Origin: Octopus vulgaris | Taxonomy: Eukaryota | NCBI GenBank assembly: GCA_951406725.2 | Contig: OX597833.1 | Span: 44,020,001 to 44,084,000 of the forward strand | Reading direction: 5' to 3' | Length of the DNA: 64,000 bases | In this document: in pieces, positions 1 through 21,962 of the stretch | Numbering within the stretch: position 1 is the stretch's first letter | Layout: each line of letters begins with the position of its first letter | The notes under the pieces: model-generated | Databases searched by the model: none | Told to the model about the DNA's origin: nothing | What the model saw: the letters and a program-made list of their open reading frames with translations, nothing else | Translations under genes and position numbers: made by a program

Positions 1-53
1 TGTTGCTGCAAATTTCAAAATCTTAGTAATAATATTTGCATCATATAATTTAT
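1..53 (-). CDS. IgSF receptor gene A: membrane-anchor exon, partial (DKLYDANIITKILKFAAT…; continues off the window)
   Basis: Strong acceptor tttttttttctttctattacag| at 54-55. Only the phase-1 frame is open. Homologous to 26181-26298. Confidence 0.6.
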
Positions 54-1616
54 CTGTAATAGAAAGAAAAAAAAAGCACATTTCATTTTAATTTTGGTAC
101 AAGACCAAAAACTTTGTTGAAGGTGGACATCGATTACATCAACTCCAGTATTCAATTGGTGCCTAATTCATTGACTCTGAAAGAATGAAAAGTAAAGTCA
201 ACTTCGGTGGCATTTTAACCCAGAAAGCCGGACAAAATGCCACCAAGCATTTTTTACGGCGTGCTCATGAATCTACCAGCTTGCAGCCTCAGAAACAGTA
301 ATCAGGGATATTGGAGATTTACATAAACACACGTAAACAATAAATAATGGGAAGAAAATCAAAACAACAAAATTCCCAATTAAAATGGAAACGTTACCCA
401 AAGGTAACCAAGTAACCTCACAGTAAACAAGTAATCCTTAGTCACCCTGTTACCAGGAATACTGTTGTGTTTCTCTCTCCTCCATGCTTCTGTAACTACA
501 TGGGCACGCTTAGGTTACGACAATTCACTCGAGATATTCTTGTTATATTCATCCACAGTGTAACAGTTTTACTGGGAGAAAGGACCTTGCTCTCCACGCT
601 CACTTTCCTTTTAAACATGAAAAGTCAATGAAGGTTTGGTCTCTTTCTCATTAATCGCATCATCTTTCACCATAAGCATCTAACAGAGGAAATCTGCCTA
701 CCCTTCAAAATCAAAGGAAAGCAAGGAAGCAATCTTCACTTTGGAGTCGACCTATAACCAGATCCTTCCGAGAAGTGATTGCAGATGGTAGACGTAACTC
801 CAGAAATCAACGAGGCTCAAGCACTATACTAATACGTGTAGAAAATCTTCATCATGCAATGTGCATCAAGTGCAAGAGCAGCTGAGGGGAATATCATGCC
901 GGTACATTTTTTTCCGCCGAGGTCGGCTTTGCCTTTCATCCTTTCGGAGGTCGATTAAATAAGTACCAGTTACGCACTGGGGTCAGTATAATCGACTTAA
1001 TCCGTTTGTCTGTCCTTGTTTGTCCTCTCTGTGTTTAGCCCCTTGTGGGCAGTAACGAAATGGGTACATTTTATTACGAATCGGCAATGTTATTCTGTAG
1101 CACTGCCAGGCAAGGGATTTTTGTAAATTATCAATGGAACCCGGCTTAAAACTTCTTCGAAAACGACTAGGCAGTTGGCATTCATTGACACTCAGAGATT
1201 CCTAGAGGATGTTATCACTTTTACTCACCACCAATTGTGAGTAGATGATCTCGGTGCAACGTCCACTAAGACCAATACCCTGCTGACAGAGGTGTGAGCG
1301 CCTGATGTCACACTAGGTGTCAGGTACCCTGCATAGGTCTATGCTTGACCCAAGAATGTCGAGTATATATTTGTGTGTGCGTGGTATCTGTGTGTATGTA
1401 TGTGTGTGTGAGTGTGTGTAGCGTGTGCATGTATGTATGTATAGACGTGTATATTAGTGTTTGTTCCCCACCATCACTGGAAAACCAGTGTTGGTTTGTT
1501 TACGTGCCCACAACGTATCAGTTCGGGAATAAGTACGACAAAGGCTATTAGAAAATAGCCAAGCATGGCCACCATCCAGTAACTGAAAGAAGCAAAAGTT
1601 AGAAGATAAAAGATAC

Positions 1617-1649
1617 CTGCATTGTCTCTGATTGCTTTCTGCTCAGTAC
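1617..1649 (-). CDS. IgSF receptor gene A: 33-nt stalk mini-exon (GTEQKAIRDNA)
   Basis: tttttatttctag|GTACT…AATGCAG|gtatct. Length divisible by 3, phase 1-1, and both splice dinucleotides conserved in copy B. Confidence 0.6.
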
Positions 1650-1961
1650 CTAGAAATAAAAATTTTAAAATTATAAACAAAATAATATATAGAAACATAA
1701 TATTTAAGTTGTTATCTTAGTTTTCAATGCAGTTTTGTTTTTCAAATTGGAAATGAAATCAAAATGTTTATCATTCAAAATGTGACCGCGTGTGTACCGT
1801 TGGCGATTTTTTTCCTCCGTCTTCCCTTCTCTGGATCTTTCCTTCTATGTTTCTGACATTAAACCCTCCTTCTTCCATTCCTTCCTGAGCGTCCAATAAT
1901 GCCATATTTGTTCTACGTCCTCGCGTTGTTGTGTTTTCTCTTTGTGTTTTCATGTTTGGAT

Positions 1962-2031
<70 letters not shown>

Positions 2032-3319
2032 ACCAGATCTACAATCGAAAAGTATGATCAAATTTGGATCCTGAACTGAAATTCATTCATTCTTTCTCCT
2101 TTTGTTTAATAAATCTTTTATAGCGGTATTGAAATTTTTTCTTTATAGTATGTGTTCTTGTTTATTTCTATGTTGACTTGCCACGCTCTATATTTTTCTA
2201 CTGCAAGCTCCTCATCTCTGAAATATGAACTAGTACCTATTGTATGTCATTCAGATAAACTGAAGCATTCTCGTGAAGTATTCTCTTTATGTCAAATTGC
2301 TGGAACCAGTCGAAATCTGTTGCTTATCTTAAGATCATTCCTGATAACTTTGACCTATGATCGAAGATTTTCCCTCCGTAACCACCCTGTCTTTTACTTT
2401 AGACATCGTTTGAATTATATTAACGAGAGTTATTCATACTTTTTAAATGAAAAGATATAATTAGAGAGATTATGTTAGTGTTTTTGACTTTTTACTTTTA
2501 TAGCTAAGTCTTCATAGTCGAATGAAACTTTCTTTTACTAGGACGATAGAATAGGCATCAGGGAGATTTAACTGCTATTTAACGCATAGAAATTCCTTCA
2601 GGATGCAGACATGTAGTTCTCTTTTCTCTTGCTGTCTAAACTCAGCAGTATTCTGTTCCAAGGAAGATGTGTTTAATTTTTTTCGTTTGTTCTATGTCTC
2701 CTTGTGGGGACATAGAACAAACGAAACAAAGTAAAAAAAATCGCAAAAATATATGTTACTAACTTAAGATGACCCGCTCTATGCGTGGGTGAGGGTGTGG
2801 TTGTTACTTTCTGTTGCTTCCCTTCTGTTTCTTTTCACCACATTCTCCCTCTTTGTTTCTCTCTCACTTTCCCACTCTCTTACTCTTCCTTTCTCTCGGA
2901 CTCTCCCTCGCTTTCTCTCACTCTCTATCTTTCTTTATCTATCTCTCTCCCATTTATAAAAAACAAAAGATCTTGAGGAAGTTGAGAAAGGAAATATTTT
3001 GAAAGATCAATCATAAATATCAGGCAGTGAAAACGGAAAGCACACTTGCGTTTTGTACGTGTCACTATTTGAGCGATTAAAAATAAGGAAAAAAGGATTT
3101 CTTTGTTAAATTTAGTACTTATTTTGTGAAGTTTTCGACGATTGACCATGCAAATGAAAGCTCTAAACTGTAAACAATAAGAGCAAAAATACGAAATAAT
3201 GAGAAATTTTTTTTCAACTTCAGAAATATTACCTTAATTTTCAAACTTTGAACCCATTTCCACGCTTAAATTACAAATCCGCTTACACTTTACTATGTTG
3301 AAAATTTGATTGAAATCGG

Positions 3320-3970
3320 GCCATTATTACATCATCTATCGTTATCATTTCTGGCATTTTCTCAATAGTTTTCTTTGGAGCCTGAATGACCGTGTTTAAG
3401 GTTTGGCCTTCGCAATGCCTACATTCCGTCGTTGTGGCCTGGAGAACCGCTATCTCTTTCTCATTTCCATGTAGGACAGTGGCTGCTATCCAGATCACGT
3501 CAACTTTTGTTCTCTCTTATCCGTTCCCCGTTCAGTTTCTCTATTGTACTCCACGAAATCTCTGACGACGACGATTGCTCCGACGGTTCCGACGAGGACA
3601 GCTCTGAGTAGCTGATATCTTCCTCTTCTGACATCTTTTCTTTTTATTCAGTCTACCTTCTTCTATGAGGAAGGAAAGCACAAATAAACTGCCGCAAGAC
3701 AGCACAAACTTAAGTGTTCAAGGAACACTACAACAATTAAACAACAATATAACGCCAGCAAATGATACAACTTTAACTCACCAAATTTTTCTCTACTACT
3801 GACTGACCTTGTTTCTCTATTGCCTACAAGGGCATACAGAGAGGGGACGAACAAGGACAGACTACAATGCACAAGTTGGACAAACAACATAAGCGGATGA
3901 ATGAAATGAAATTATATAAAAATGGTGTAATGGCTACTACTCGACCTCACTTCCGTGTAGTACCATTTTA
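3320..3970 (-). mobile_element. Tx1/L1-type ORF1 (gag-like) relic; fuller copy at 29450-30508
   Basis: Copy B translates …VEVRFKEAEK…RRALKVSVEGIPPEVDVVWIAA…, homologous to the 5631-6910 ORF1. Copy A has a ~400-bp deletion at ~3506. Confidence 0.6.
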
Positions 3971-4309
3971 ACTATATTTACACTATTTTTAATCCAACGT
4001 TTATCCGAATAATTATCTTAGCAAATTGAAAGCGGTTTCAGTTTTTCGAAATCCAACACAGGAGGCAGAGGATCGTATCTTATTTCTACCCCTAATGGGT
4101 TTACTTCGTCCCCAGGTGTACCATTAAAAGTTTGCTTTTAATTTTTAATAGTTTTTCTTGTCAATTAAAATTCACCCCATACCTGGGTCTCTCATGTTTT
4201 CTTCTTCTATAACTTTTATCAAGATGTAATCTTTCAATCTCTTTATTCGCGTGGTCTAACGCCATAAACAGCACATTCTGTTTGGCCTAAAAACAGGTGT
4301 TAATGAGTT

Positions 4310-5630
4310 TCCTGGCAAGGGTGGGGTGCTGGTCCATTTCTACCAGTCCAAAGCTTTCGACAAGGTTGAACATCAGTATCCGGTGTTGGTCCTCACAGCA
4401 TTCGGGGTCGGCCCCGTCTTTAGAGGGTGGATCATTCGTGGCTGATCAATTTAGAGGGGCTACTCGTCCGTTTTTTTGTGGAGTAGAAGTCCTCTTGTAA
4501 AGCGCTCTGCCTGCTGCCAGCACCCGCTAAATGGTGGGCAAGGGATGTCTTGGCTGTTGATGCGCAGACGTGCGCTGATGCTGAGGTATCTGTGTCTCTA
4601 CCTGGATAGTGAACAGGTGTGGTCTCCGTTCGGTCGGTTGTTAGTTACTAAGCTTACTAGTTTGGGTGAACTAGGACCTTGGGTCAAGTGTAGACGAAAG
4701 TTGAGTGTTTGGCAAGCGAAGTGTTGTGAGGCACTCAAGCTTCTCTGTCACATGGACAACGCCAGCGGAGGGGGTTCCACCTCGTATTTTTATAGAGGGT
4801 TGGTATAGGTTCAGTGTGACGACGATGTGGGGGAAGACTCTAGGCTTCGATGATGGTCAACTAGCCTGTCTGTTCCAAAGGACATTTGGGCCAGGACCCT
4901 TGGATAACTTCCAAAGATTCTCCGCCTGGCAGTGTTACTGAGGAGCCTTACCATTTCGCGATAAACTCGCAAAGCATGGTGAACCTTGCGCACCCGCGAA
5001 CAGGACAGGACAGGACAGGGAAACTGTTTTGCACACGATTGTACAATGACCCAAAATTTCCGAAATGTGGGTTTACCTTGAACACCCGCTGACGCGGCTG
5101 GGAAGAGTACAACTGTCTTTCGAGTCGATTCTATAGATTGTTCCTGCTTCCTCTTTTAACAAAGACAGCATGGCTCGTTTTCTCATTGTGGTCGCTATAC
5201 CGAAAGAAGTAGTATGGAAGACCCACGTGAAAAGAATCGTGAGAGGCATCTTCATCTCCAGCCTTGGACTGGTTAATTTCCTCATCTACCATCTTAAGAG
5301 AAAAATAAGGGTGGAGATAAAATGCCTGTCACCTGATTTATACGGAAAACGATGGAAGGCTGTAGCGAGTTTGTTGAGAATGAAGAATCCGCATAGTATA
5401 TCCATAAGGTTATACAAAACGGTTACAATGGTGGCATGGGGCTTGCGGGGTCGAAGCGAAACCCGTCCTCCACTTCATTGTATGGTTATTGTTTGGTATC
5501 ATCCTATTTATAAAAATTCTTAACGTAAATTTTTAACTATTCATCTTTTGTAAAATCATTAGTTTTATCCACTCCTCCCTCATTTGTATCGTCCCCTCTA
5601 TGTTTAACCCCTGTGGGCAATAAAGAAATA
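4310..5630 (+). mobile_element. Tx1/L1-clade LINE, 5'-truncated ORF2 relic with 3' tail (internal RT deletion in this copy)
   Basis: QSKAFDKVEH motif, with the C-terminal ORF2 region in broken frames. Ends gtcccctctatgtttaacccctgtgggcaataaagaaata. Confidence 0.8.
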
Positions 5631-6910
5631 GTCGTTCTTGTTCTTTGACTTGCTGTTGGTGACTGCAGGGGAATGGTGCGACAGCGTTGGACAGGGTGGG
5701 TGTAGGGTAGGAATTCACATTTTCACCTCGATTTCTTCTTTTCTCTCTCTTCCGTTTCTTTGGTGCCGTATTCCATCCATGTTTCTCTTCTGTCACCTGA
5801 TTATCTGCCTCCTTCTCCGGTTCTTTTTTGCTCACACATGACATCGCAAGCGCTGGAGGTGCGCTTTCTTTCGTTGGTTCCTTTGCGGCAGGTGGAGTGT
5901 ATCCTGTTTTATGTGCCTGTTTGACAGCATTTAAAGGAACAGTGAGTCCTGCTCTCCACTAAGACTCTCAGCTTTACATCCTCTCCAAATGTGATGGTTT
6001 CTACCATCTTCTCTGAATCTCCCATGGCGGCCTGGATTATCATTTCTAGTGCCAATTTCTTTGTGGTATACTTTTGGCCTGGAAGCTCACAAACTTATCT
6101 GCCATTTCCAACGGGATGGCGGCCACCATCCAGGCTACACCCACCTAAGGAGGGATCTCTTCTACCCTTACCCCAGAAGCACGCCTTCCCAGGTAAATGG
6201 TTAGAAAGACCACTTCACCCGTTTTGAAGGGAGTCACGCCATGCAACCTGGCCCAAGACTTCGACGCAAAAAGCACCTCTCCCGTTGTCTATCTTCTGCT
6301 TCTGGCAAAGTAATTCACTTCCTTCAATTCCTCTATGCCTTTTCAACCTGTGTTGTTGTTGCGACCTCTGTTCGCTGTAATTATAAACCGTAAGTTCTGC
6401 ACAGTACGGTTCTTCTTTTAACTCCTTCCGTTATCTCACTGGAAATGGACACCTTTACATCGTTCCCCTTAATTTCAAAGATTTCCTTGAATTGATTCAA
6501 TTCTTCCAAGCATACGTCCTCACTTTTATCTTTCACCGCCTGGAGTTCTTGGCCTCCATCGCCTCGTCAATCTTTTTCAAACTTCTAACAAGTTCGCCCT
6601 CGGACGACAAGTCTGAGGAGCTAACCTTTTCAGTTCTCGCTCCATTACCGTGCCTCCCCTTTCAAACAAGGAGGAAAGCGTCAACAAAGCCGCCTGAGGC
6701 AGCAAAATGATGTGCCGACGGACACAAAACAGTCAAACACAGTGAAAAACAATTCAACTCACAGAAAAATTCAAGATTTTAACCAGCCTGCAAATGAAAT
6801 AACAACTCTGCTACTACTGACTGACCAAACAACAAATGATTGCTGACTTTATAGTGGCTGAGTCATACCACTTTGCCACGTGGTAAGGGGTGTACCATTT
6901 CTCTACTACT
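5631..6910 (-). mobile_element. Tx1/L1-type ORF1 relic with degenerate CCHC knuckle and TATA-containing 5' end; copy B at 32616-33909
   Basis: Minus strand …YLGRRASGVRVEEIPP*VGVAW…RVLVESRTHCSFKCCQTGHIK… (ORF1 zinc knuckle context). The 5' end carries TGACTCA and CTATAAAA. Confidence 0.65.
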
Positions 6911-7356
6911 GTGTGTATAGTGTGTGCGTGCGTGTATGCATGTGTGTGTGCGTGTGCGTGCGTTCCTGTGTGCATACGTGTGTACGTGCGTGCGTGCATG
7001 TGTATGCATGTATTTATAAAGAGAAAGTCCGCTTTTCCGTGCTCTACGGACCTTTTCACTACAATTTCCGCCATAAGGAGGACTTTATGCAAACCATGTC
7101 ATATAGAGTGCATTTAAAGGATGCAGCTTCTTATATCAACTAAATGTCTCTATAATCTTAAAAAAGAAACTATATAAATTTGGTTAATCGTAATGATATA
7201 CCTGTCAAGGATAAATATAATTGTCAATATAACCGTGAGTGGATGTACAAATTTACTGGAAGGTGTAATTTAACCAGAAGTATTGTTTCAGGAGACGTTA
7301 AGGAACAAGAATATATAAAGACGTTAAGGAAGATAACACAAAGAAAATTTGTTTAC

Positions 7357-7662
7357 CTGTTTTGCTGGTGAGCTGTAGAGTGCGTGATTCACTGTATACA
7401 GAACATGAGACGCTTGAGTTACCAATGTCCCCCTCTCTTATAACGATTTTATAAAGTGACACTGCTGGAGATAAACACTTTCCATGCGGTCGAACATCCA
7501 CTTGACTCACATTTATCCATTTGTGGTGTTTTGTCTCATGACTCCATAAAAAGTCAGTAGCGCCAAAAGGTGCCCCGATGTATGCTGAACATCTGAAGAT
7601 CGCTAACTTGTTTACTTCAGCGGGCGGGTTAAGAAATTCAAGTTTCTTCATGAAAGATCTCA
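7357..7662 (-). CDS. IgSF receptor gene A: Ig domain 2 exon (C2/I-like, 306 nt, phase 1-1)
   Basis: Acceptor ttttttcttttcag| and donor G|gtaaac. Open frame RSFMKKLEFLNPPAEVNKLAIFRCSAYIGAPFGATDFLW…GKCLSPAVSLYKIV…GNSSVSCSVY. B-strand Cys, Trp 16 residues later, F-strand Cys. Confidence 0.88.
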
Positions 7663-7689
7663 CTGAAAAGAAAAAAACAAAAACGAATA

Positions 7690-7868
7690 GGCCCAGGAGT
7701 GGCTGTGTAGTAAGTAGCTTGCTAACCAATCACATGGTTCGGGGTTCAGTCCCAGTGCGTGGCATCTTGGGCAAGTGTCTTCTGCTACATTCCCGGGCCG
7801 ACCAATGCCTTGTGAGTGGATTTGGTAGATGGAAACTGAAAGAATCCTGTCGTATATATGTATATATA

Positions 7869-7916
<48 letters not shown>

Positions 7917-8115
7917 TCCCCCTAGCATTGCTTGACAACCGATGCTGGTGTGTTTACATTCCCGTCACTTAGCGGTTCGGCAAAAGATACCGATAGAATA
8001 AGTACTGGGCTTACAAAGAATAAGGCCCGGTGTCGATTTGCTCGACTAAAGGCGGTGCTCCAGCATGGCCGCAGTCAAATGACTGAAACAAATAAAAGAG
8101 TAAAAAGAGTAAAGA
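7690..8115 (+). mobile_element. Octopus-type tRNA-derived SINE, family B (also 34700-35147; tails at 8530-8678 and 35561-35708; split copy 12139-13770; 39560-39922; minus-strand tail 56462-56680)
   Basis: A-box TGGCTGTGTAG, B-box GGTTCAGTCCC, cttgggcaag core, internal (TA)/(TG)n, and tail gcggtgctccagcatggccgcagtcaaatgactgaaac…(aaaagagt)n. Confidence 0.9.
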
Positions 8116-8689
8116 GAATCGAAATATGTTTATCTTCGAACAAAGGGCCTCACAATAAAAGAGTAGTTTCACTAATGTAAACTACAATCTTCATACTAAA
8201 CTAAAACATTTGACAACACTCCAATTATTGTTAATCCTGGGCTTTGGGAAATGTTGCTTGGAAGTGGTTAACTGTGTAAGCAGTGCTAAGGCTGTGTGGA
8301 GCCAAGTCACTAGCAATAACTGCACAACAGATGAATGACACATTCATACACGTGTATATTTACTTACACATAAGCATGTATTTGTGTGCAATTATATATA
8401 TTTTCATGTGTGCGTGTATGTATGTGTGTGTGTGCGCATGTATGAATATGTGGACACATATATAGATACATATATATTCACATACGCAAACATATTTACA
8501 TACATTTATGCATGCATATACAGACATGCACTTAGCGGTTCGGCAAAAGAGACCAATAGAATAAGTACTGGGCTTACAAAGAATAAGTCCCGGTGTTGAT
8601 TTGCTCGACTAAAGGCGGTGCTCCAGCATGGCCGCTGTCAAATGACTGAAATAAGTAAAAGAGAGAAAAGAAAGAGAGGGACTTAAGTG

Positions 8690-9047
8690 CATGCTGGACG
8701 GTACCTACACCAGAATGTTACGTGCAGTGCCCAACATTTAATGGAGGGAGCACCCAAAAAAACAAAGGTTATACGGGAATGCATCAACTTTCTCATCAAT
8801 CATCTAAGAGCGTACGTTGGGTTTTGCTGACCATTGCTGGAGAAGTAAAGAAAAACTTGTGAGTAACGAGTTGTTGTGGGCACCAAATCACGGTACCACA
8901 GCGACTGGAAGACCACGGAAGACATATATACAACAGCTTGCAGAAGATGTTGGATGCCAAGTTGAAGACCTAAAAACACTAATGGAAGATCGGGAGTGAT
9001 GGAGAGAGGTAGTCAGGCTGGCCTGGGCAATTGACCTGACTGGATGA
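8690..9047 (+). mobile_element. RTE-clade LINE 3' fragment (copy B at 35719-36075)
   Basis: MLDGTYTRMLRA…GFADHCWRS…LLWAP…GRPRKTYIQQL…MEDRE*WRE resembles the RTE ORF2 C-terminus. Confidence 0.75.
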
Positions 9048-9160
9048 AACTTGTGTTCGATAGTGCAATAGAAACACGCAATAGAAATAAAAATAAAGAC
9101 AATGGAGTTGAATACGTGCAAAACAAGAAACGGAAGTAAAAATAGAACGAGTAAACTGAC

Positions 9161-9493
9161 CTCTTACAAGTCTAGGTTTTGAAGATCCTCGATTTGTTGA
9201 ACATTTGTAGTATGTCGCATCCTCACAAGAGGGATAACGTTTCGAGCAGGTAACCACACCTTTCTTATCTGCAGGGAACGTAGGTACAGTACAGTCAAAA
9301 CCCTTTCTCCTGGTTACTACCTCAAAAATTCGTGACTTCAATTGAAGATCGATTTGAACAACAACTTCACTGTGATTTCGCACGAGAAAAAACTGAAGAA
9401 GATTTTTTATATCATACCGACATTTTATAGTTAAGAATGTTGCGTGTGCAAAATCAATATTGCTTGAAGGAAACACATCTGCAATCTCAATAA
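9161..9493 (-). CDS. IgSF receptor gene A: Ig domain 1 exon (V-like, 333 nt, phase 1-1)
   Basis: Acceptor tttttttttctatgcag| and donor G|gtcagt. Open frame IEIADVFPSSNIDFAHATFLTIKCRYD…GFDCTVP…VVTCSKRYPSCEDATYYKCSTN. B-strand Cys and D-x-x-x-Y-x-C F-strand motif, plus 3 extra Cys. Symmetric phase-1 exon typical of Ig modules. Confidence 0.88.
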
Positions 9494-9557
9494 CTGCATA
9501 GAAAAAAAAACATAAATCAGAGATAGATGTTATAAAGAAATATATAAATGTAACTAT

Positions 9558-9660
9558 AGAAGAAGAAGAAGAAGAAGAAGAAGAAGAAGAAGAAGAAGAA
9601 GAAGAAGAAGAAGAAGAAGAAGAAGAAGAAGAAGAAGAAGAAGAAGAAGAAGAAGAAGAA
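9558..9660 (+). repeat. (GAA)n trinucleotide tract in the intron just upstream of the V exon (copy B at ~36587-36683)
   Basis: About 34 GAA units, seen directly. Confidence 0.95.
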
Positions 9661-10189
9661 TGACTGAAGTAGGAAAAAGAGAACAAATAAAAATAACGGT
9701 TGTTGTGAATACGGATTACATCTATCCACAAATAAAACTTTGCAGATAGTTTTTGATATTTTGTATTATACTAACATACCTGTGTCGTCAAAATGCCGAC
9801 AGTTTTATTAATCATAGAAAATAGTTCATCAACACAATGGGAAAAACCTTTGATAGATGTCATCAATGTGGTAAATATATGCACATGCACACAATTTAAG
9901 CTCTTCAAGTATTAAATACGGTTCTAACGTCTCAGTTGAAAATAACTTGATACATAATATGTATTTACGGACACACACACGGACTTACACATACACACAC
10001 ACACAGATATATGCATATAAATATATGTATATATATATACATGCATACATTCATACATACATAATTGTATATCATATATAGAAAGAGAGAGACAAATTTA
10101 TATATATAGATATATTGGTTGTTACATCTATATATTAGTATATATGCATGCATATCTATGCATTTATTTATCGAAATCTTTCTGCCTCA

Positions 10190-10225
<36 letters not shown>

Positions 10226-10439
10226 CTCTCTCTCTAGGAGTCACTGTAAGACGCTTGCTTCCCAGCCATACAGCTGGGAAGCAAATGTCTTAAAATATTA
10301 GAATTTTTGTCATTTGCCTTTTCTGAACAGCCCTACAACATGATAGGATACTGCTCATAGAGACAAAATATAAAAAAAAATTTAATATATTCCTTTAACA
10401 TTTCCTTTCATATTAATATCAATATAATAATTATTGTTC

Positions 10440-12138
10440 AAAATTAAAATAATGGTGTGGATTCAAAATGCCGATGTCGGGCTTTATTACCCGTCAATCA
10501 ACCAGTTTCGTCTATACACTTTTTCTCTTTTGTTCTACTGCACCAGATTTTAAGTATTTTATGTCTAAATGTAGCTTATCACAAGTCAAACATGATTTTA
10601 AAAAACTAAATTTGATTTGGATTAAAACTGAATTAGTGAGACTACTTGGAAGACGCCAACTGCAACAAAAAGCTACGTTAAGAATATTATACAACTACTA
10701 CCGTAGTGTACACATAAGTTTTTATGTGTATATACAAGTTCGAAAGAACATATGATGATATATGCAAAATTTTATAGGGTCTACAAGAAACATTCATATA
10801 TGCAAAATTGTTCAAAATTATATATAACTATATATAATAATTGTTCTAATTTATTTATTCGTATTAATATAAACTTTAGTCTTAGTAAATAAGAAAGTAA
10901 CACAAATTTACTTGGTTTATCAGAGGAGAATAGCATCATAAATCAATGTTTATTATATATTGATTGAAATGGTTCTTTTTCTTAGTTTGATTTATAATAA
11001 TATATTTGTATATTATTGAAGCAATATTAATACATATTTTCGCTGGTCTCAATGGAGAAATTACCGATTCACTTATCTTTACAAGACTTTCCTATTCCAC
11101 CTAGAAAGGATTTCATGAAGGATCTGATTAATAAGACTTTTGAATTCATTCATAGAATCCGTTGGGTGGCTTTTTACCATGAAAAGGATTTTATAACAGA
11201 AAATAACCCACATAAAAAAGATACTGAACTTTTTAAAAAGAACTTTGCGACGAAGAAATTTACACCACCAAACTGCCATTTGGAGGCTTTTGAAGACGAT
11301 TTACGGAATATTGTCAAGAATATTAAATTTGTTAAATATTCCCTCTGGGAAATTGAACGTTTAAAGAAACTAAATTCTTTACTATGTGATCTTAAAAGAA
11401 AAAAATGGGATTATGGAGCAATGAAACTTATATGACTAGTATCTATTAAAATATCATGAATGAATGAAGAAAGCGATTACTAGTGATTATAAAGTAGTAA
11501 GTAAAAGGTTTTAAGGTTCATTAACTTAGAAGCGAAGAAAATTATGAATGACTAGGGCCTTGATGATAGAACAGAGACTTTTGTGTCTATGAGGCCATGG
11601 ATAACTTTAAAAGATCACAAGGAAAACAACTTTTTAAACTCTAAAGTGAGAATAATTTTCCCAGGCCGATCTGACCTGAGTACATTAAGTAAAGTTTTTC
11701 TTGATATGTGTATACTTAAGAAAAACATATAGTCAAGAAAAACATGAAACTTGAACTTTTGTCTAATACACAGGAAACTATTTATTGGTTTGCTAGACCG
11801 GATAATAAAAATAGAAGTAAATTTATACAGATATATATTAATAAATATTATTCTTCTATTAATCCTGTTTTGCTTAATAATGCTTTTTTATCTGTTAGAA
11901 AAAAAAACTGTAACATTATATTAAAGAAATTAAAGTAAGTTAGGGAGTTCAAAAATCTATTATTTTATTTGATAATAATAAGTCCTGGGCTAGAAAAAGT
12001 AACAATGATTTTTTGACATTACCATGGGATCTGCTGATTCTGATCTATACATTCTATTTTATTTTCGTAATAAATTTCCTGATATTAAAGGTGGACTGTA
12101 TAGAGATGATGTGCTCTTTTTGATTAATAGTGACACCT
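10440..12138 (+). mobile_element. Penelope-like element, RT N-terminal relic (copy B at ~37870-39558)
   Basis: MEKLPIHLSLQDFPIP…LINKTFEFIHRIRW…LEAFEDDL, then ITLKDHK and TMGSA…GGLYRDD RT motifs in broken frames. Confidence 0.8.
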
Positions 12139-12285
12139 TCAGCAAGTGTCTTCTACTATAGCTTCAGGCCGAGCAAAGCCTCGTGAGTGGATTTGGTAGA
12201 CGGAAACTGAAAGAAGCCTGTCGTATATATATGTATATATATGTCTATGTCTATGTATATATGTATATATATATCTATGTGTATA

Positions 12286-13557
12286 CGAGGGACGTTCAAT
12301 AAGTAATGCCTCTGACCCACTTGTAGTTAGTTGCATGTGCAATTATTTATATCTCTATAGATTAAGTGGCAAATTACAGCTCTGAAGTAATTGTGGTTTC
12401 TGATTTACAGGTGTTTGAACTGAGTCAAGTGTGAAATGGAGCCTGTTCAGTGTCGAGCAGTGATTCGGTTTTTGTATTTGAAATGACGCGCACCACGGAG
12501 AGTTTTGATGAAATGAAAGTAACTTATGGTGATGATGCCCCATCATATGACCTTGTAAAACGCATGCATCGTGAATTCAAGCATGGTCGGAACTCTGTGG
12601 AAACAGCTCCCAGATCTGGTCGCCCCCCTTCTGCCATTGATGAGGCATCTGTCCGTCAAGTTGAGGCTGCTATTCTGGAAGATCGACGCATAACTATTCG
12701 CCAAATAGCCCATGAGGTCAAGATTAGTACCGGGTCCGTGGAAACTATCATTCATGACCATTTGCACATCCAAAAGTTGTCTGCCAGATGGATTCCCAGG
12801 TTGCTCACACCTTTCCAGAAGCAAGAAGGCGTCGAGTGCTCGAGGATGAATTTGGAGATGTGCCAAGAAGATGAGTCAACATTTTTCAAAAGACTGATTA
12901 CACAGGATGAAACCTGGGTCAATCATGATGATCCAGAGACCAAAGCCCAGTCAGTGCAGTGGAAGCAACGTGACTCACCTCCTCCAAAGAAGGCAAGGGT
13001 GCAGCCCTCCGCTGGCAAGGTCGTGCACAGAGTCTTCTAGGATCAGGGCGGAGTAGTGATGACAGAGTTCCTGGCAAAGGGCACCACAATTACAGGCGCC
13101 TATTATGCTTCACTTTTGAGGAATTTAAGAGAAGCTACCAAAATCAAGAGGCGGGGCAAGATCAGGAAAGGCATCCTCCTCCTGCAGGACAACGCTCCGG
13201 TCCACAACTCGTGTGTCACCAGATCAGAAGCACAGGCGTGCGGCTATGAACTCCTCCCCATCCCCCCTACTCTCCTGACCTTGTACCCTCTGATTTTCAC
13301 CTCTTCCTAGCCATGAAGTTGTTTTTGAAAGGAAAGCGTTTCCCAGATGATGCAGCCTTGATTTCTGAAGTTACGTCGTGATTGGTGGACCAAGCTGGGG
13401 TCTTCTACAAAAACGCTCTCTAGAGCTGCATCAAACGATGGGAAAATGCGTAACTCTGGGTGGTTCCTATGTAGAAAAAGACTAATAACTGTGCCAAGTT
13501 TCGTTGCTCTACAGCTATGGGAAGTGGGTTAGGGGCATTACTTATTGAACGCCCCTC
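12286..13557 (+). mobile_element. Mariner (D,D34D) transposon with pseudogenised transposase 12436-13485; copy-A specific, inserted into a SINE microsatellite
   Basis: TA|cgagggacgttcaataagtaatgcc left TIR and ggcattacttattgaacgcccctc right TIR. WIPRLL, TQDETW, LQDNAPVH and YSPDLVPSDF motifs. Empty site at ~39700. Confidence 0.93.
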
Positions 13558-13769
13558 TGTGTTTGTCTCCCCATCACCACTTGACAACTGGTGTTGGTGT
13601 GTTTACGTCTCCGTAACTTAGGGGGAGTGACAAAAGAGACAGATAGAATAAGTACCAGGCTTAAATTATAAGTAGTGTGGCATCTATTCAATCGATTAAA
13701 ATCTCAAGACGGTGCCCGAGCATGACTCTAGTCTAATGACTGAAGTAAGTACAAGACAAGAGATGAAAG

Positions 13770-13814
<45 letters not shown>

Positions 13815-13817
13815 AAG

Positions 13818-13914
<97 letters not shown>

Positions 13915-14664
13915 TTGCTAGCAACAATATTTACACCTATCATAACAATAAAAACTCTGTCTAAGTTTCGGATGTTAACCCCAACAGATTAAAGTTACTA
14001 TCGAAAAATTCCAAAATTAGAAACACCATTTACCAGTGCAAAATTTCTTCGGGAACCGATGTCTTCTTCTACATTGGAGCAACTTCTTCTAAATTAGCCC
14101 AAAGGTTATCCAACCATTATTCAACTTTCAGAGATAAGAGAAAACAACACAGCACGGGACTAAGTAAACTAGTTTGGCGTCTGAAGGACAGCAATACAAC
14201 TTTCAAACTGGAATGGTCCATATTGTCGGTGTCCTTCCCGTTTGACAAGGGCAGAAAACATTGTGGCGTCTGTAATTCCGAACTTTTTCATATTTTGTTC
14301 GCCAAAGTTCCTTTAATAAATACAATCGTAGAGAGGTCCTACAGATGTATGCACTGGCAAAAACACACCTTTCAATCATATGAAAAATGATTAATATAGA
14401 CAGCCCCTTGAATTTTAACTAATAAAACTCTTTTTTTATATATTTCACCCCCATAGTCAAAAAATTCTTTTTATACTTTCAAAGAACTACTACCCACGCC
14501 AGTGAGGTATGTGTTACCTTTGTCCCTATACCTCGCTCAACTCTTTCACTCTCTTTCTCTCTCTCTTTCCCTCTATCTATAGTAAGCACAATCATACACA
14601 GAGACACAAATCGTTCACCTCACCACTGTCTCTTTTCTGACACCCACCCATCCACAAACACAAT

Positions 14665-14711
<47 letters not shown>

Positions 14712-15256
14712 TAATGCCGTTATATATAGTCACACACACAGACACTCATTCACAAAAGAAAATTCACCATTCATTTGAACTGCACCCTTTCACCTTCCTA
14801 TTCTTATGCCTCTCTTCTCCTACTTCGTTTGAACCCTTAAACCTTTAGAACATTCTAGAATCTTCTACATCCAACCATTTTGACGTCACTCCTTATAAAG
14901 GAATTTTTTTAAAGACACTCATTATCACTATGGGCTCCGTGTGAGCTGTCATCTAAAAGTTTTTTGTGTATCTTGATGTTGACATAAGTTCCTTGCTTTT
15001 CCTGATGAGAAAGCGGCATAATATACTCCTTATTCCTTCGCAATTAGGAATATGCAGCCTTCGAAACATATGTCGAAAATAAAGGAATTTGTTAATTCGT
15101 CGTTCAACTCCATTCTTTCATATATTTATATTTTAAAAAAAACATTCAAATTTCCACACGAATGCGCGTAACTTCAAACGTGTCTTCTCTGATGTGAATT
15201 TGCTACCCAGGTATCGGCTAACCGAATTATCCTTAACAAGATAATTCATGCAACTA

Positions 15257-15260
<4 letters not shown>
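13915..15260 (+). mobile_element. Penelope-like element 3' part: GIY-YIG endonuclease (to stop at 14390) plus pLTR with hammerhead; copy-A specific
   Basis: TIYQC…FYIGATS…QRLSNHYSTF…STGLSKLVW…EWSIL…CGVCNSE…CMH. Confidence 0.88.
14989..15087 (+). ncRNA. Type I hammerhead ribozyme (Penelope pLTR)
   Basis: Stem I ttccttgctttt/aaaataaaggaa; CUGAUGA at 15002-15008; stem II gaaagcggcata/tatgcagccttc; GAAAC at 15063-15067; palindromic stem III CATATG; GUC cleavage triplet at 15072-15074. Confidence 0.85.
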
Positions 15261-15352
<92 letters not shown>

Positions 15353-15387
15353 GAGAGATGAATAGATAGATAGATAGATAGTTAGAT

Positions 15388-15660
15388 ATGTTTATTTATT
15401 AGCCACACAGGGCTGCACACAGACGGAACAGATTACAAAGTAGAGCTGTTCCTTATGGGGGGAAAAGAAAGAAGTGGAGTAGGTTTTCGATCAAAAGGGA
15501 TCGTAAAAGGGAAAGAAAGAAAAATAACGATCAATAGGGATCGTGTATCACAGTAATGTCATGATGTAAAGTGTATGGGGGAAAGTAAATAGGGTTTATC
15601 CGTGGAAAGAAAAGCATTCGGAAAATACCCCGGTAACCCTGGTCAATAATGTTAAATGTT
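15388..15660 (-). mobile_element. 3' UTR/tail fragment of a Tx1-like LINE (copy B at 46260-46535)
   Basis: Minus strand ends ctgtgtgcagccctgtgtggctaataaataaac, resembling the 5591-5630 tail. Confidence 0.5.
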
Positions 15661-16733
15661 AACATTTATAGATAGAGGAAAGGGTAGTACAAATGTCAAA
15701 ACCATACACTTCAGCCTACAAACTTTTGCTAAAATACATTCAAATATGCTTAAGTTAAATTCTTCATAATAAGGATGGATTTATGGTTTTGACATTTGGA
15801 CTACCCCTTCCTCTTTCTATAAATAGAAAATTCTTGTTTGTCTCCATTGAACCAAGATAAGAAACCCCCTCCCCACTGATAGATCTAAATAGCAAAGTGA
15901 ACTCAGTGATAAGAAATCTACCAATGGAGAAGGACATACTACCACCACGTTCTTGATGATGAAATTAACCTGTCTGTCAATATATCTACCCTCTTTGTAA
16001 TGTTGGCAAATGAAATAAGTATAAATATGTACATTGTCCATTTAATTTAAATAAAACTTCTATATGTGGCTGATGATTGCTCGACATTTAACAACTGACA
16101 TAATACTTACAATGTTTAATAAAATGAAGTAGCATGAAACGATTGTACTACACTACCTTGGATATCCTTGTTGCTTATTTTGATTATAATCATCTACATT
16201 GAGAGAAAGACGGGATGGACGCTTCATTTTTGTGCTTGTGCCGCATTATGTCGTACGCGACTGAGAGGATTTGCATCCCCAACGTAGAATTTTTGATGTA
16301 ATACATGTCCTTGAAGTAGTAATTGTGCGCGGCTGAAGAAGGCCATAGACACACATTATGCATTGTTATAAATCCGTCTAATAAAGGCCCGAAACATATG
16401 TACCGCTGAATCCTTGGCATCATGATTTTATTTTGATTAATATATATATATAGTAGAAATATGTTATAAAAAGAAAATATAAAATACACCTAGAAATGTA
16501 AGGGTAAAATATGAAAAATCAACGAAAATGCACATTGCAAATAAAAAAAGGCTATTTATGACAGGTAACGACAAATATATACATTTAGATTGACTGGGGT
16601 AGTAATACGAGTCATAAAAGTCATTATTATGAGATGATTATAAGATGATAACAAAGTAAGAGAACAAAACGATCCATGGTTTACCCAAAGCTATCCATCG
16701 TTTCAAAAACACCGGCTAATATCATATATATAT

Positions 16734-16770
<37 letters not shown>

Positions 16771-17282
16771 CAGAAGACGAAGACAGCAGGTGTATTATTT
16801 TAACGCTCGGGATGAAAGCAAAATTTTTTATGTCTCGAGCCTATGCTTTTCGACAAAAAGGATTAAGAGGAAAAAAAACGGAGAGAGAATGAAGAAAACT
16901 GTGAAAGAATAAAGAAAATTGGGTAAGAAAAGGAAGTGCAGAGAAAAATTGTCCAACATGGCGAGATGACCGGAAAATAGAGGTTGAATGAAAGTGAGAT
17001 AATAATCATAACGATAACGGTAATATCCAAGGATCTTAGGTGCACAAGCGCATGTGTGTTTGGGAGGACGGTGTCTGTGAATGTGTTTATGTGAATGGAT
17101 GCTAGTGTGTGAGTGGGTTAGCTGAAAATTATGTGGACTTCTGTGTGTCAGTGTGTACATTATGTGAAGTGACATGCATTCCATGTACTGGCTGGTGTGA
17201 GTGTGTGCGTACGGTTGTATCTAATTTTTGTGCTCCCAAGGGGCACGCTACTGATTATGTGAGAAATTTCAATAGTCTAAAG

Positions 17283-17501
17283 CAGTGCTTTTCAAACTTT
17301 TTGCTGGAGCGGAACCCCAAGGAAACATTCCACTGGCTCGAGGAACCCCTGTGCCATAATTTAATAGTCTGATGCACACATATCTGCACAGGAGAATTAA
17401 AAATTACTGCCGATTTTAGCAGTTTTGTAACTTTTTGTGGAACCCCTGGAGTGTGTTGGTGGAACCCGAAGTTTCCGCGGAACCCTGGTTGAAAACTACT
17501 G
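17283..17501. mobile_element. Non-autonomous hAT (Charlie/Buster-like) MITE (copy B at 48077-48295)
   Basis: TIRs CAGTGCTTTTCAA…TTGAAAACTACTG, 8-bp TSD GTCTAAAG on both sides, and repeated GGAACCC subterminal motifs. Confidence 0.9.
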
Positions 17502-18483
17502 GTCTAAAGCCATCCCTGGAACATAAGTAATGTACCTTCGCAGTTTGGAGGAAATCAGTTGAAAAATACTGTCGTTATAAACTTTTACAAACACAGACAG
17601 AACGGGATATGTATGTACGTATGTATGTATGTATGTATGTATGTATGTATGTATGTATGTATGTATGTATGTATGTATGTATGTATGTATGTATGTATGT
17701 TCGTACGTACGTATGTGTGTGTATGTGTGTGTGTGTGTGTGTTTGTGTGTAAAATTAACCTAGTGTATGTGTTGTGTGGAGAAATGTGCGTTTTGTGTAT
17801 CCCTCTGTATGTGTGTGTGTGTGTGTGTGCATATGGACGTGTGTGTGTGTGCATATGGACGTGTGTATATTTGTGAAGCTAACGTCTCTGTGTTCGCGTG
17901 TGTCTGTTGTGTTGCACGTGTAGCCGTTCATGTGAGCTAATTCAGGTAGTGTGTGCACGTGTGTATGTGTGTGTGTGTGTGTGTTTATCTGTAATCAAAT
18001 AGTGTGCACATCTATAGTGTATTTTTGTAGCGAATGTTATCCGTGTCAATGCGTGTTATGCGTGTTTATGCGTGTTGCGTGTGTATCTATATATTCTCTG
18101 TGTTCGGATATTATGTGTTTGTGTGGGTGTGAGAGTGTGCATCATGGTGTGTGGTGTGTGTACTGAATTAAACAGTGTGTTGTGTTGTTCGTATTATGGT
18201 ATTTGTGGCGAGCTGGCAGAAACTTTAACACGCCGGGCGAAATGCGTAGCAGTATTTCATCTGCCGTTACGTTCTGAGTTCAAATTCCGCCGAGGTCGAC
18301 TTTGCTTCTCATTCTTTCGGGGTCGATAAATTAAGTACCAGTTTCGCACTGGCGTCGATGTAATCGACTTAATACCTATGTCTGTGCTTGTTTGTCCTCT
18401 CTCTGTGTGTAGCCCCTTGAGGGCAGTAAAGAAATAGGTACTTGTGGTGACGCTGTTGAAAAGTGTATGTCGGTGTGTAGATA

Positions 18484-18559
<76 letters not shown>

Positions 18560-18639
18560 GTGTATACTGTGTCGTTCGAAGATGAAAGCATGTTATCTAA
18601 GAGAAGAAGATTCAGTGTTGTAACTTAATATTAACTTAC

Positions 18640-18802
18640 AAGCCGAGGTGTAAGAAGACATCAGTAACATCATAACTAACAACATTGTTGATCTTGTGCC
18701 ACAGGTATAAGGCAGGAGGAGAAATGATTGTCGGCTTCCAGAAAGCAGAAATTTTACGAAAAGGTATCTCTTACAAATAGCGTAGTCGAAATGGCCAAAC
18801 AT
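18640..18802 (-). CDS. IgSF receptor gene A: leader/signal-peptide exon (likely start ATG at 18685, [15 protein letters not shown]; upstream in-frame ATG at 18802)
   Basis: Hydrophobic stretch ending in T-S-A (signal peptidase -3/-1 pattern), followed by the perfect phase-1 donor GCT T|GTAAGT. It splices in frame to the V exon (…YTSA-FIEIADV…). A at -3 of the 18685 ATG. Conserved in copy B. Confidence 0.75.
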
Positions 18803-18861
18803 AACTGAAATAGAGAGAAAAACGCATGTCCAACTTGAAGTGTGAGTGAACTGAAAGTCCC
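18803..18861 (-). promoter_or_regulatory. Candidate core promoter of gene A: TCAGTT initiator-like motif (or splice acceptor) and kappaB-like GGGACTTTCA ~50 bp upstream
   Basis: Minus strand TTTCAGTT at 18803-18810. GGGACTTTCA at 18852-18861 is a 9/10 match to GGGACTTTCC and is also at 49682-49691. Motif match only. Confidence 0.25.
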
Positions 18862-18968
18862 ATCTTTCTGTTTCTTTCTTTTTCTCTCTCTATCTTTCTC
18901 TTTCTCCCTCTCTCTGTCTGTCTGTTTCTCTCCCTTTCTCTTTTCTGCTTCGAGAGGGCAGGTAAAAC

Positions 18969-18969
18969 G

Positions 18970-19009
<40 letters not shown>

Positions 19010-19010
19010 G

Positions 19011-19042
<32 letters not shown>

Positions 19043-19094
19043 ATAGATAGAGAGAGAGATAGATAGGTAGGTAGGTAGATAGATAGATAGATAA

Positions 19095-19139
<45 letters not shown>

Positions 19140-19420
19140 GAGATAGATAGAGAGATAGGTAGGTAGATAGATAGATAGATAGATAGATACATACATAGAT
19201 AGATAGATAGATAGATAAGATATAGAGAAATAGATAGATAGATAGATAGATAAATAGATAGATTGATGGATAGATAAATAGGTAGATAAATAGATAGATA
19301 GATAAATAGGTAGATACATAAGATATAGACAGATAGATAGTGAGATATAGATAGAGAAATATAGAGATATTGAGATAAATAGAGAGAGATGGATAAAGAT
19401 ATATATATAGAGATATAGAT
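18969..19420. repeat. (GATA)n/(GA)n tract absent from copy B; representative of many (TA)n, (TG)n, (TATG)n, (GATA)n and (ATT)n microsatellites
   Basis: Direct observation. Confidence 0.95.
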
Positions 19421-19909
19421 GTCACGGACGCTAGAAAACCGGAAGTAAATATTCTTAAAAACAGAAACTTAAATACACGCACACGTACACAAGCACGCAC
19501 GCACATGCGCACGCAAAAACACACACTCACACATATACACATACAAAGATGAAAAGAAAGATAGAGAATTTCGAAGTACTGAGAGATTGGGTGAAAGAAG
19601 TATTGTGATTAAGCAAAAGACGCCGACTTAGGACGCGGGAGAGGAAAGTGAGGGAAAGTTATAAGGATATGAAAGTAAGAAAGGGAGAGAAGAAGGAAGA
19701 TTGGCAAGAAGGAGTTACAGTAAAAGATTAAGAAGAACGTCATGGAAAAGTGAGAGGGAGAGAGTGAAAGGGACAAAGATAGAGAGAAAGAGCGTAAGAG
19801 GAGAGAAAGTGAGAGAGAGAGAGAAAAAAAGAGAAGAACAGTCAAAACATTTTCTTTTTTTTACTACATTTGTTTGGTATTTTTCTAATAGATTTTTCAA
19901 TATGACGCT

Positions 19910-21030
19910 ACACTGGACACTGGATGACATAGCTGACCTTGCTGACCTAGCTGCTTGAACAGCTTCCTAAGCACTCTTCCGACTCGGTTGATTCATGCCA
20001 AAGGGAATCGTCGGGAGTGGTAGGCTTACCAGGATTTCTACCTTATCGAAGCTCCTTCTTTATTGTAAGGTCATCCAGGCAGTTGAGAAAAAAAAGGATT
20101 TACTCCACTCCCCGAGCAGTCTGGATTGCTGCTACACATACCACTAGGTAACTTACGGGTGAAGCAGAAGGGATTGGAAGTGAAACGGTACGGGATCTTT
20201 TCGGTTTGAACGGCAGTTTTTTAAAAATAATTTCCACGCAACAAAACACTTTTAAACTTCTTATACTGGTAGAATGTATTTATAAAACATCTTTTTCTCT
20301 TGGTTTTATTGAGACAATTCTATAGTTTGTAGGTTTTTTGTTGTTTTTTCTACTTCAATATCTGCAATTTCAACCAATCAATGACATCTATTGAGGTAAA
20401 AACATTCTGTCCCGTATGAATCTGTCCCTCGTTTAAGAAACAGATTGGGTTTATTTACATTCCTGAAGAAAAAAAGGTACCCTTCCCCCCACCCAAAACC
20501 CTAACCCTAACTAACCCTAAACCTAAAACAGATCGATTCCAGGGTCATAATTATGGGTGACAATTTCATATGACACCGCTAGAAAAAACTGCCGTTCAAA
20601 CCGCAAAGATCCACTGTACGTTCATCTCTTCGAAATCTGACATTGTGCTTAGCAACAAGCTCACGTTTTCTTCATCAGAATATCTCATAACTCTGCTTAG
20701 TTGATTGGCGTTCCCCTCCACTGGATCCTTTGAAAGTTCCCAATTCCTCCTACCATAAATATATTTGGTAAGCGAGCAGGTTTATCTGTCGGATTTATTG
20801 TTACATACGTCAATGATGCTGAATCTGGCAACTGCTTTGCCAACAATGAGAGTTATCTCCAGCCTCAGCCGTCAACCAGCATCACCTTACCCACTGACCG
20901 TTCGGTCCTGCAAACATAATTTTGAAATTTCTGCCACTCACTCTTGTTGCTTCGTAGAGGTCATTTACCTGCTGATCAACACTGTATTTGGTTGGATATA
21001 CAAGCATATTAAAGTAGTCGGCAGGTTGGC
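19910..21030 (-). mobile_element. Degenerate LINE (probably RTE-like) relic split by the MITE (copy B at ~50155-51245)
   Basis: Coding-like GC-richer sequence with broken frames (YIYGRRNWELSKDPVEGNANQLSRVMRYSDEE). Family assignment uncertain. Confidence 0.4.
20193..20612. mobile_element. MITE with ~29-bp TIRs (GGATCTTTTCGGTTTGAACGGCAGTTTTT), 8-bp TSD and internal CCCTAA repeats (copy B at 50409-50869)
   Basis: TSD acggtacg/actgtacg in A and acggtatg/acggtacg in B. GG termini with an 8-bp TSD suggest MULE or Merlin type. It interrupts a LINE relic. Confidence 0.85.
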
Positions 21031-21032
21031 TA

Positions 21033-21113
<81 letters not shown>

Positions 21114-21115
<2 letters not shown>

Positions 21116-21735: not shown

Positions 21736-21793
<58 letters not shown>

Positions 21794-21800
<7 letters not shown>

Positions 21801-21880: not shown

Positions 21881-21962
21881 ATATATTTATACTGTGAAAT
21901 TTGATTTAATCCTAAATCTAATTTTTCCCTGGAAGTTTGGAGCCATACTCCCTAATTTTATT

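Follow-up and report, generated by a model that had tools for sequence, protein, structure and literature searches.

What is a tandem array of closely similar immunoglobulin (Ig) genes doing in the genome of an octopus? The question is raised by a stretch of 64,000 nt of Octopus vulgaris (contig OX597833.1 of assembly GCA_951406725.2, positions 44,020,001 to 44,084,000 of the forward strand; hereafter the window), in which a first-pass annotation had proposed a "hidden" spliced gene for a cell-surface receptor with two Ig domains, one V-like and one C2-like. The window holds two copies of this gene, A and B. We found that the V exon of six recent copies, A among them, is under diversifying selection. 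The reading that we favour, at a probability of roughly 0.45 and by analogy with known systems, is that of a recognition family in an arms race with a changing and presumably foreign ligand.

Exon structure and product of copy A

Copy A lies on the minus strand, and all five exon coordinates proposed for it were confirmed (18640..18802, 9161..9493, 7357..7662, 1617..1649 and 1..53): the acceptors are AG with pyrimidine tracts, the donors GT (GTAAGT after exon 1, GTCAGT after exon 2), every boundary is in phase 1 and the exons join into a single open frame. Exon 1 is open from an upstream ATG at 18802 and encodes a leader that begins MLLVMM at 18685; the positions 18802 and 49632 (in copy B), previously taken for splice boundaries, are both ATG positions and not AG. 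The ATG at 18685 is probably the true start, because copy F keeps the leader intact but has a frameshift in the 39 codons upstream of it; the product counts 265 residues from this ATG and 304 from the upstream one. Exon 2 (333 nt) encodes a V-type Ig domain with five cysteines and is the exon under diversifying selection among recent copies, exon 3 (306 nt) a C-type Ig domain with three cysteines and the C-strand Trp, exon 4 (33 nt) the linker GTEQKAIRDNA, and exon 5, with its first 53 nt in the window and 27 nt more past the edge to the stop, a hydrophobic tail like those of glycosylphosphatidylinositol (GPI)-anchored proteins.

The protein order is leader, V-type Ig, C-type Ig, short linker, tail and stop, and the C-terminal pattern, read by eye, is D-N-A or D-A-N followed by 19 mostly hydrophobic residues. 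Since the stop comes 27 nt past the window edge, the protein has no cytoplasmic tail. Of the description "cell-surface receptor", the leader and the anchor-like tail hold up, and the transmembrane and cytoplasmic parts are absent from copy A. Judged from its sequence, the protein probably acts as a binder, GPI-like or released, and not as a signalling receptor, with GPI attachment predicted from the tail.

Diversifying selection in the V exon of recent copies

Seven near-identical genes lie at 43.99-44.21 Mb, three of them (Z, A and B) on the minus strand and four (C, D, E and F) on the plus strand; the earlier statement that the gene is present twice in tandem was right about the arrangement and understated the number. 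The V-exon tests used Z, A, C, D, E and F, with B left out as frameshifted. dN exceeded dS in all 15 V-exon pairs (pooled pN 0.106, pS 0.028), and the flanking introns diverged by 0.036-0.054. Our own codon models gave an omega of 4.3 under M0 (p 0.0004 vs 1) and placed 30% of the sites in a selected class (p 7e-8, a site-model figure that is inflated, as set out below); IQ-TREE agreed on the test of omega > 1 (2 delta lnL 15.1). A tree-free count over codons with a single change, which leaves out 15 codons with several changes, yielded 33 replacement changes vs 1 silent change where 26% silent were expected (p 0.0004). Ten of the 11 flagged sites lie in or beside the BC, C'C'', DE and FG loops of the copy Z strand table and the eleventh alters a glycosylation sequon, while all five V cysteines were spared in each of the six copies. 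The site model of the C exon was significant as well (p 3e-5).

These numbers bear on the simplest alternative, namely that the recent copies are redundant duplicates that drift because selection is relaxed and have no special role, their dN excess arising from conversion patches or sequencing error. Decay is certainly present: the V exon of copy B has lost its frame, the last exon of copy E is duplicated and in one version frameshifted, and the vicinity contains an orphan C exon and three other broken exons; the C exon, moreover, is near omega 1. Yet drift, error or conversion would not yield a replacement-to-silent ratio of 33:1, spare five cysteines in six of six copies and exceed the intron divergence, which makes this explanation very improbable.

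Predicted fold and disulfides

An AlphaFold2 model of the two domains of copy Z, which are 85% and 91% identical to those of copy A, was built from 34 sequences and reached a pLDDT of 94 and a pTM of 0.82, with nine strands followed by seven. Its V domain matched the N domain of CEACAM7 (Z-score 11.7, rmsd 1.9, 96 residues), a T-cell receptor V domain matched equally well (Z-score 11.7) and antibody V domains were tied; both domains together matched CEACAM1, nectin-3, B7-H6 and butyrophilin at Z-scores of 11.1-11.5, all tied. These Z-scores of 11-12 to V-set and V+C chains bear out the Ig folds expected at first sight, and with its modelled beta-sandwich and B- and F-strand cysteines the family falls into the immunoglobulin superfamily (IgSF). 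A weaker model of a transmembrane relative (pLDDT 66 overall, 80-93 in the domains) matched SIRP-gamma (Z-score 12.0, rmsd 5.6, 205 residues), and its second domain matched MHC class II and IgY constant domains (Z-scores 11.0-11.6, rmsd 2.1-2.6), in ties with nectin-3 and B7-H6. The language-model neighbours of the C exon were CD80-like C2-set_2 and C1-set clusters, tied at 0.94. The proposed layout of leader, V, C2 and anchor is thus retained as a layout, and the models leave its second domain tied between C1-like and CD80-like C2.

The best matches of the family profile among solved structures were antibody light chains (kappa), with rabbit as the label of many (E 4e-6). Each domain has a spare cysteine (in V it belongs to the motif CxDxxxYxC), and these two align with the cysteines of light-chain QCDDAATYYC and NSADC; in rabbit kappa light chains those cysteines form an interdomain disulfide between V and C. 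For the octopus V domain we would expect disulfides B-F and D-E, for its C domain a disulfide B-F, and between the two domains one bridge. A homodimer prediction for the copy Z ectodomain, run without using the alignment, scored 0.05 against a mark of 0.32, and a search of viral folds returned only generic V-C Ig proteins. A language-model search with the V exon was set aside, since recognition stayed at 2037, below the mark of 2300, and mollusc clusters came first. A comparison of two family profiles with each other was likewise set aside as circular, the two having rows in common.

Size, clusters and relatives of the family

Searching the 2.8-Gb genome with the V exon gave 46 matches that represent 45 exons, two of the matches being halves of the exon of copy B. 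Twenty-nine lie at 43.64-44.73 Mb, 11 at 0.86-1.10 Mb and four at 2.85-2.94 Mb of the same contig, and one on C1. The paralogue count that had been proposed as a check thus came out as a lower bound, at least 45 family V exons, in three clusters on the chromosome plus one retrocopy. In the fetched stretches, 30 V and 28 C exons are open and all have phase 1 at both ends; the remaining matches are broken, run into a stop or were left unresolved by the script. The open V domain is a single exon of 309-333 nt in 30 of 30 cases, always with CxDxxxYxC/F and with five cysteines in 25; 24 of the 28 open C exons have three cysteines and the other four have four; linker exons measure 33-42 nt. Most members are only 25-45% alike and yet preserve frame, exon phase and cysteines, which establishes that the exons are coding. 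A transposon origin was considered and rejected, given the Ig fold of the exons and their distribution, some 45 of them grouped in clusters and not spread over the genome.

Terminal exons were counted in 872 kb of fetched sequence plus the window. There were 26 distinct matches, 23 GPI-type, one transmembrane and two weak repeat matches (E 0.03) that were discarded. In several family genes the C exon closes with a stop, and the products would be secreted. Secreted forms, together with positive selection and lineage-specific bursts, would also suit reproductive recognition or immune modulation (at the gamete surface, the spermatophore or the oviducal gland), in the manner of rapidly evolving gamete proteins or of the CEA family's secreted PSG branch; against such a role stands that the matching read contigs come from runs of four studies with tissues unstated, and we hold it to be quite unlikely. 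Three public models of relatives (P0044, P0039 and P0034) comprise V, linker and GPI-like tail without a C exon, and the symmetric exons would allow one-domain isoforms.

Relatives were found in O. bimaculoides, O. sinensis, Argonauta, the cuttlefish Acanthosepion and further assemblies, and nothing credible appeared outside cephalopods among the 43 matches of a full HMMER scan, word-based homologue searches being insensitive here. The non-cephalopod matches (P0022, P0045-P0047) were low-complexity or confined to transmembrane segments and were discarded. In the databases searched, the family is accordingly what it had been taken for, a lineage-specific cephalopod IgSF family in a tandem array. 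In a tree of 58 V domains (108 columns, with many open forks, and with species other than O. vulgaris sampled via cluster representatives), several genes pair with single O. bimaculoides genes, and the six recent copies form one clade (100/100) adjoining one O. bimaculoides gene (91/85, not firm).

The gene is not hidden in the sense first meant. Public annotation covers the window genes as chimeric "hypothetical" models that fuse neighbours, and one of them (P0005) is pieced together from four genes, namely B, A, the adjacent copy Z and one more. Pfam assigned none of the three single exons that were searched to a family and gave only sub-threshold Ig matches on 19 relatives. Because Pfam misses the family and public annotation fuses its genes, expression atlases cannot have counted its members properly.

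Several details of the clusters were recorded besides. Copies C-F (44.093-44.236 Mb) are inverted relative to A and B and flanked by remnants of the last exon of a neighbouring gene, an arrangement that suggests an inverted duplication. In copy E, the last two exons are duplicated, the first terminal exon being the frameshifted one. At 44.578-44.733 Mb, at least five near-identical plus-strand members are fused in one public model (P0010, 1202 aa) with Thr/Lys-rich, mucin-like stalks, and at 1.037-1.081 Mb four equal-scoring V exons stand about 13.6 kb apart, either a very recent tandem run or an assembly repeat.

A transmembrane member with ITIM- and ITSM-type motifs

Whole-genome searches with two transmembrane relatives recovered a single transmembrane exon, which stands at the main cluster's edge, together with its retrocopy. 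The gene to which this exon belongs occupies 43.576-43.644 Mb, and its relatives come with two alternative tails, one with an inhibitory motif of the immunoreceptor tyrosine-based kind (ITIM) and a switch motif of that kind (ITSM), the other with a PDZ-type end. LHYAEL and TPYAEV, along with a proline run, are encoded by a downstream exon, which is probably spliced to the transmembrane gene, as the same motifs stand in one chain in proteins of the cuttlefish and of another assembly. In octopus, cuttlefish and the third assembly, LHYAEL and T-x-Y-A-x-V/I are 25 residues apart, a spacing as in PD-1, and the ITSM-type sequences of the long tails are TPYAEV, TDYAVI and TEYADI. These motifs fit the ITIM consensus [ILVS]xYxx[IVL] (10.1101/2022.03.04.482883, in the excerpted text) and the ITSM consensus TxYxxV/I (PMC11012012, likewise). 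The transmembrane member would be predicted to recruit phosphatases.

One inhibitory-type receptor alongside many variable surface relatives is also what a code of self or kin identity might look like. Tail-less markers would be read by the ITIM/ITSM member or by each other, a match would give an inhibitory signal (for example in hemocyte restraint or in self-recognition between skin and sucker), and diversification would create individual or cell signatures. Precedents exist in the excerpts of two sources: GPI-anchored CD48 binds ITSM-bearing CD244 inside a single V-C2 family (PMC11012012), and Alr shares the plan of a gene cluster plus ITIMs and has an EF-loop cysteine for which a bridge to the domain that follows is predicted (10.1101/2022.03.04.482883). 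A single receptor, however, would have to read ligands that differ by 70%, and allorecognition would be marked by allelic polymorphism; we consider this reading unlikely.

Three other proteins have shorter tails with neither ITIM nor ITSM, ending in S-A-V or S-T-V, a class I PDZ-binding pattern; the end exon of this short tail was not found in the 86 kb searched. Such an isoform, the one-to-one gene pairs between two Octopus species and a layout of two Ig domains, probably GPI-linked and expanded by lineage, as in the Dprs (PMC10084454, in part), would fit a neuronal wiring code in which two-Ig labels are combined on neurons like insect Dprs or Beats. No Wirin or Beat appeared among the sequence matches, though, and replacement changes at 2-3 times the intron rate, together with recent gene death, are by general knowledge atypical of wiring molecules, so that wiring seems improbable to us.

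Evidence for splicing

The copy on C1 consists of one intronless frame that joins, in order, V, C, the 41-nt linker, the transmembrane and first tail exons of the gene at 43.58-43.64 Mb; for this comparison DNA and domain matches were used, the protein matches having been swamped by microsatellites. It is a processed retrocopy of the transmembrane member and thereby demonstrates the splicing of this exon layout. In the retrocopy (L061:4436-5404; C1, about 165.12 Mb), the leader, both Ig domains and the transmembrane helix have stayed open, but the tail goes out of frame and terminates ahead of the tyrosine motifs, so that the product may be a receptor without a tail. Exon layout and tails are also matched by public O. 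bimaculoides models.

RNA says little about the window itself. Four of 23 listed sequencing runs, presumed to be RNA although none is on record as such, were placed on positions 1-9550. One read contig breaks off precisely at the donor 9161 and another at 7354 (with three letters in common with the next exon), unplaced letters following in both cases. Another runs 12 letters into the intron at 7663-7674 and is unspliced, and one carries the extra codon of copies D-F. The read contigs are 91-99% alike and not assignable to copy A. Short interspersed repeats at 912-1067, 7759-8117 and 8529-8677 drew very many contigs and are probably high-copy elements resembling short interspersed nuclear elements.

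A proposed recognition family facing a changing ligand

How the arms-race reading would work can be sketched as follows. The product of copy A would be a glycoprotein of a V and a C Ig domain, exported via its leader and either held by GPI on the outer membrane or shed. The cephalopod family may go back to a single transmembrane gene whose tail is of the inhibitory type (ITIM plus ITSM), and in octopus tandem duplication would have given rise to dozens of tail-less surface and secreted forms. Unable to signal alone, these would bind an outside ligand via the tip loops of the V domain, in a protein that the predicted V-C bridge would rigidify. The seven newest copies would be diversifying at these loops against a ligand that most likely belongs to changing microbes or parasites, and losing copies, such as B, would decay. 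A foreign, changing ligand fits best because rapid change at the tip goes together with birth and death of copies, and the same selection pattern marks pathogen-binding CEACAMs in the excerpts of PMC5112662 and PMC11646289.

Several observations weigh against this reading. Gene conversion or recurrent change is extensive in the V exon, where 67 of 171 site pairs fail the four-gamete test, and for this reason the site models are inflated. Constraint on the C exon is weak in the young copies (19 replacement and 7 silent changes in seven copies, p 0.67; M0 omega 1.9, p 0.09). Many older members stand one-to-one with O. bimaculoides genes, which suits stable roles as well. CEACAM decoys, as far as the excerpted text of PMC11646289 goes, remain close to their inhibitory receptor, and the recent copies are not simple decoys of the ITIM member because their V domains are only 28-34% identical to it, the nearest other V exon reaching 58%. 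No activating member with an immunoreceptor tyrosine-based activation motif (ITAM) was seen in a search of the tails that was not exhaustive, would have passed over unrelated transmembrane exons and left parts of the clusters outside the fetched stretches. The GPI signal in the tail of the window subfamily is modest (best 15-residue hydropathy 2.05, with two lysines; relatives 1.7-3.5). Finally, none of the predicted copy A junctions occurred among the 15 joints listed out of 179, a table filled by intronic repeats.

More broadly, and tentatively, the recognition reading could be extended to an independently evolved octopus Ig system of self and non-self, composed of one conserved coleoid inhibitory receptor (V plus C1-like, with tandem ITIM-ITSM) and some 45 GPI-linked or secreted relatives that diversify at tip loops equivalent to complementarity-determining regions. 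If true, cephalopods would possess an equivalent of the paired-receptor and allorecognition complexes, and octopus immunity and self-recognition would gain a molecular handle. We found no account of this family in the open-access literature, subscription papers and most supplements lying outside that search; a genome paper may have it in a supplement, as an expansion without a name. Nor does the searchable literature describe any variable Ig receptor family of cephalopods, and a 2025 review of invertebrate IgSF proteins contains neither "octopus" nor "cephalopod". For questions of cephalopod immunity and self-recognition, the analysis names candidates and predicts which face of the protein binds and which member signals.

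Copy B, the segmental duplication and transposable-element remnants

Copies A and B form a segmental duplicate of 26-30 kb. The unit with copy A (1..22508) consists of collinear blocks 88-98% identical to the unit with copy B (26246..55592), which was lengthened by later insertions. Since the introns share this 88-98% identity, the likeness of A and B is in itself no proof of coding.

Copy B, also on the minus strand, comprises a leader exon (49470..49632), a frameshifted V exon of 335 nt (36189..36523), an open C-type Ig exon of 306 nt (34354..34659), a 33-nt linker (27693..27725) and the coding part of exon 5, stop included (26219..26298). It does not splice into one frame as first thought: a short CT run near 36300-36307 has two bases too many, and a premature stop stands at 36297-36299, after residue 129 in the count from the upstream ATG, which may reflect a dead allele or an assembly slip. 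With its symmetric exons, copy B could keep the frame by skipping the broken V exon. The GT at 26181, once read as a coding boundary, lies 38 nt behind the stop codon (26219-26221), and 26181-26218 is 3' untranslated.

Intron 1 of copy A, and of copy A only, contains a Mariner-like transposase fragment at 12435-13040 (+), its class read from the translation (helix-turn-helix match, E 4e-6). Reverse transcriptase remnants (RVT_1) of long interspersed nuclear elements lie at 51431-53587 (+; E 3e-31) and 30795-31325 (+; E 4e-5). A GIY-YIG-like fragment at 54570-55097 (-; E 0.003) and an AT-rich frame of 449 codons without Pfam match at 41721-43070 (+) are possibly Penelope-like remnants. PIF1-type helicase fragments at 60185-63012 (+; E 5e-43) are Helitron-like and adjoin local repeats of 1.6-2 kb at 55617-61000. 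Rfam had no match within the window.

Comparison with known systems

The first-pass annotation had likened the gene to the CD2/CTX-like, SIRP and Alr families. This likeness extends to the layout, and each of CD2/SLAM, CTX, SIRP and Alr has defining features that were not found. With kappa light chains, the octopus family has a common cysteine solution, one extra cysteine in V and one in C, and it differs from them in having neither rearranging segments nor chain pairing. SIRP, B7/butyrophilin and nectin proteins resemble it in their V-C fold, with scores tied across these families, and differ from the octopus members, which have two domains only and are mostly GPI-like. SIRP has a V and two C1 domains before the membrane, whereas the octopus genes consist of two Ig exons, a linker exon and an anchor exon. 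In CTX/JAM, V is split over two exons and C2 has an extra disulfide; the octopus V is encoded by a single exon in 30 of 30 cases, and its C domain has one spare cysteine and not a pair.

Drosophila Dprs (Wirin) and Beats are likewise lineage-expanded two-Ig surface proteins according to excerpts of PMC10084454; no sequence link to them was found, and strong recent diversifying selection and an ITIM/ITSM founder set the octopus family apart. It has in common with CD2/SLAM (CD48, CD244) a two-domain V-C ectodomain, a GPI or, in octopus, GPI-like member and ITSM-bearing members (PMC11012012, excerpted text). In the same source, the SLAM V domain is without a disulfide, whereas the octopus V has B- and F-strand cysteines; SLAM C2 has two disulfides, whereas the octopus C has three cysteines (24 of 28 open exons). 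The Hydractinia Alr complex, as far as excerpts of 10.1101/2022.03.04.482883 describe it, offers about 40 divergent clustered IgSF genes with one exon per domain, pseudogenes, ITIMs and an EF-loop cysteine with a predicted bridge to the following domain; the octopus family lacks an Fn3-like spacer, and almost all its members lack a transmembrane helix and tail.

CEACAM/PSG, in the excerpts of PMC5112662 and PMC11646289, is a tandem family that derives from a single ITIM/ITSM transmembrane gene and includes GPI-linked as well as secreted relatives (the GPI link in octopus being a prediction), with V followed by C, and with dN/dS > 1 and conversion in the V exon, a test that in octopus covers the six recent copies. 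Fold matches to it (Z-scores 11.0-11.7) are tied with others. Identity in the fold alignments is only 8-16%, the octopus V has five cysteines, its tail-less copies are far from the inhibitory member and no ITAM member was seen; the likeness to CEACAM would be convergent rather than homology at the level of the family. On the best reading, the octopus genes are organised like CEACAM, SLAM or Alr and are a member of none, which would make them another independent case of the plan of one ITIM receptor plus many tail-less relatives.

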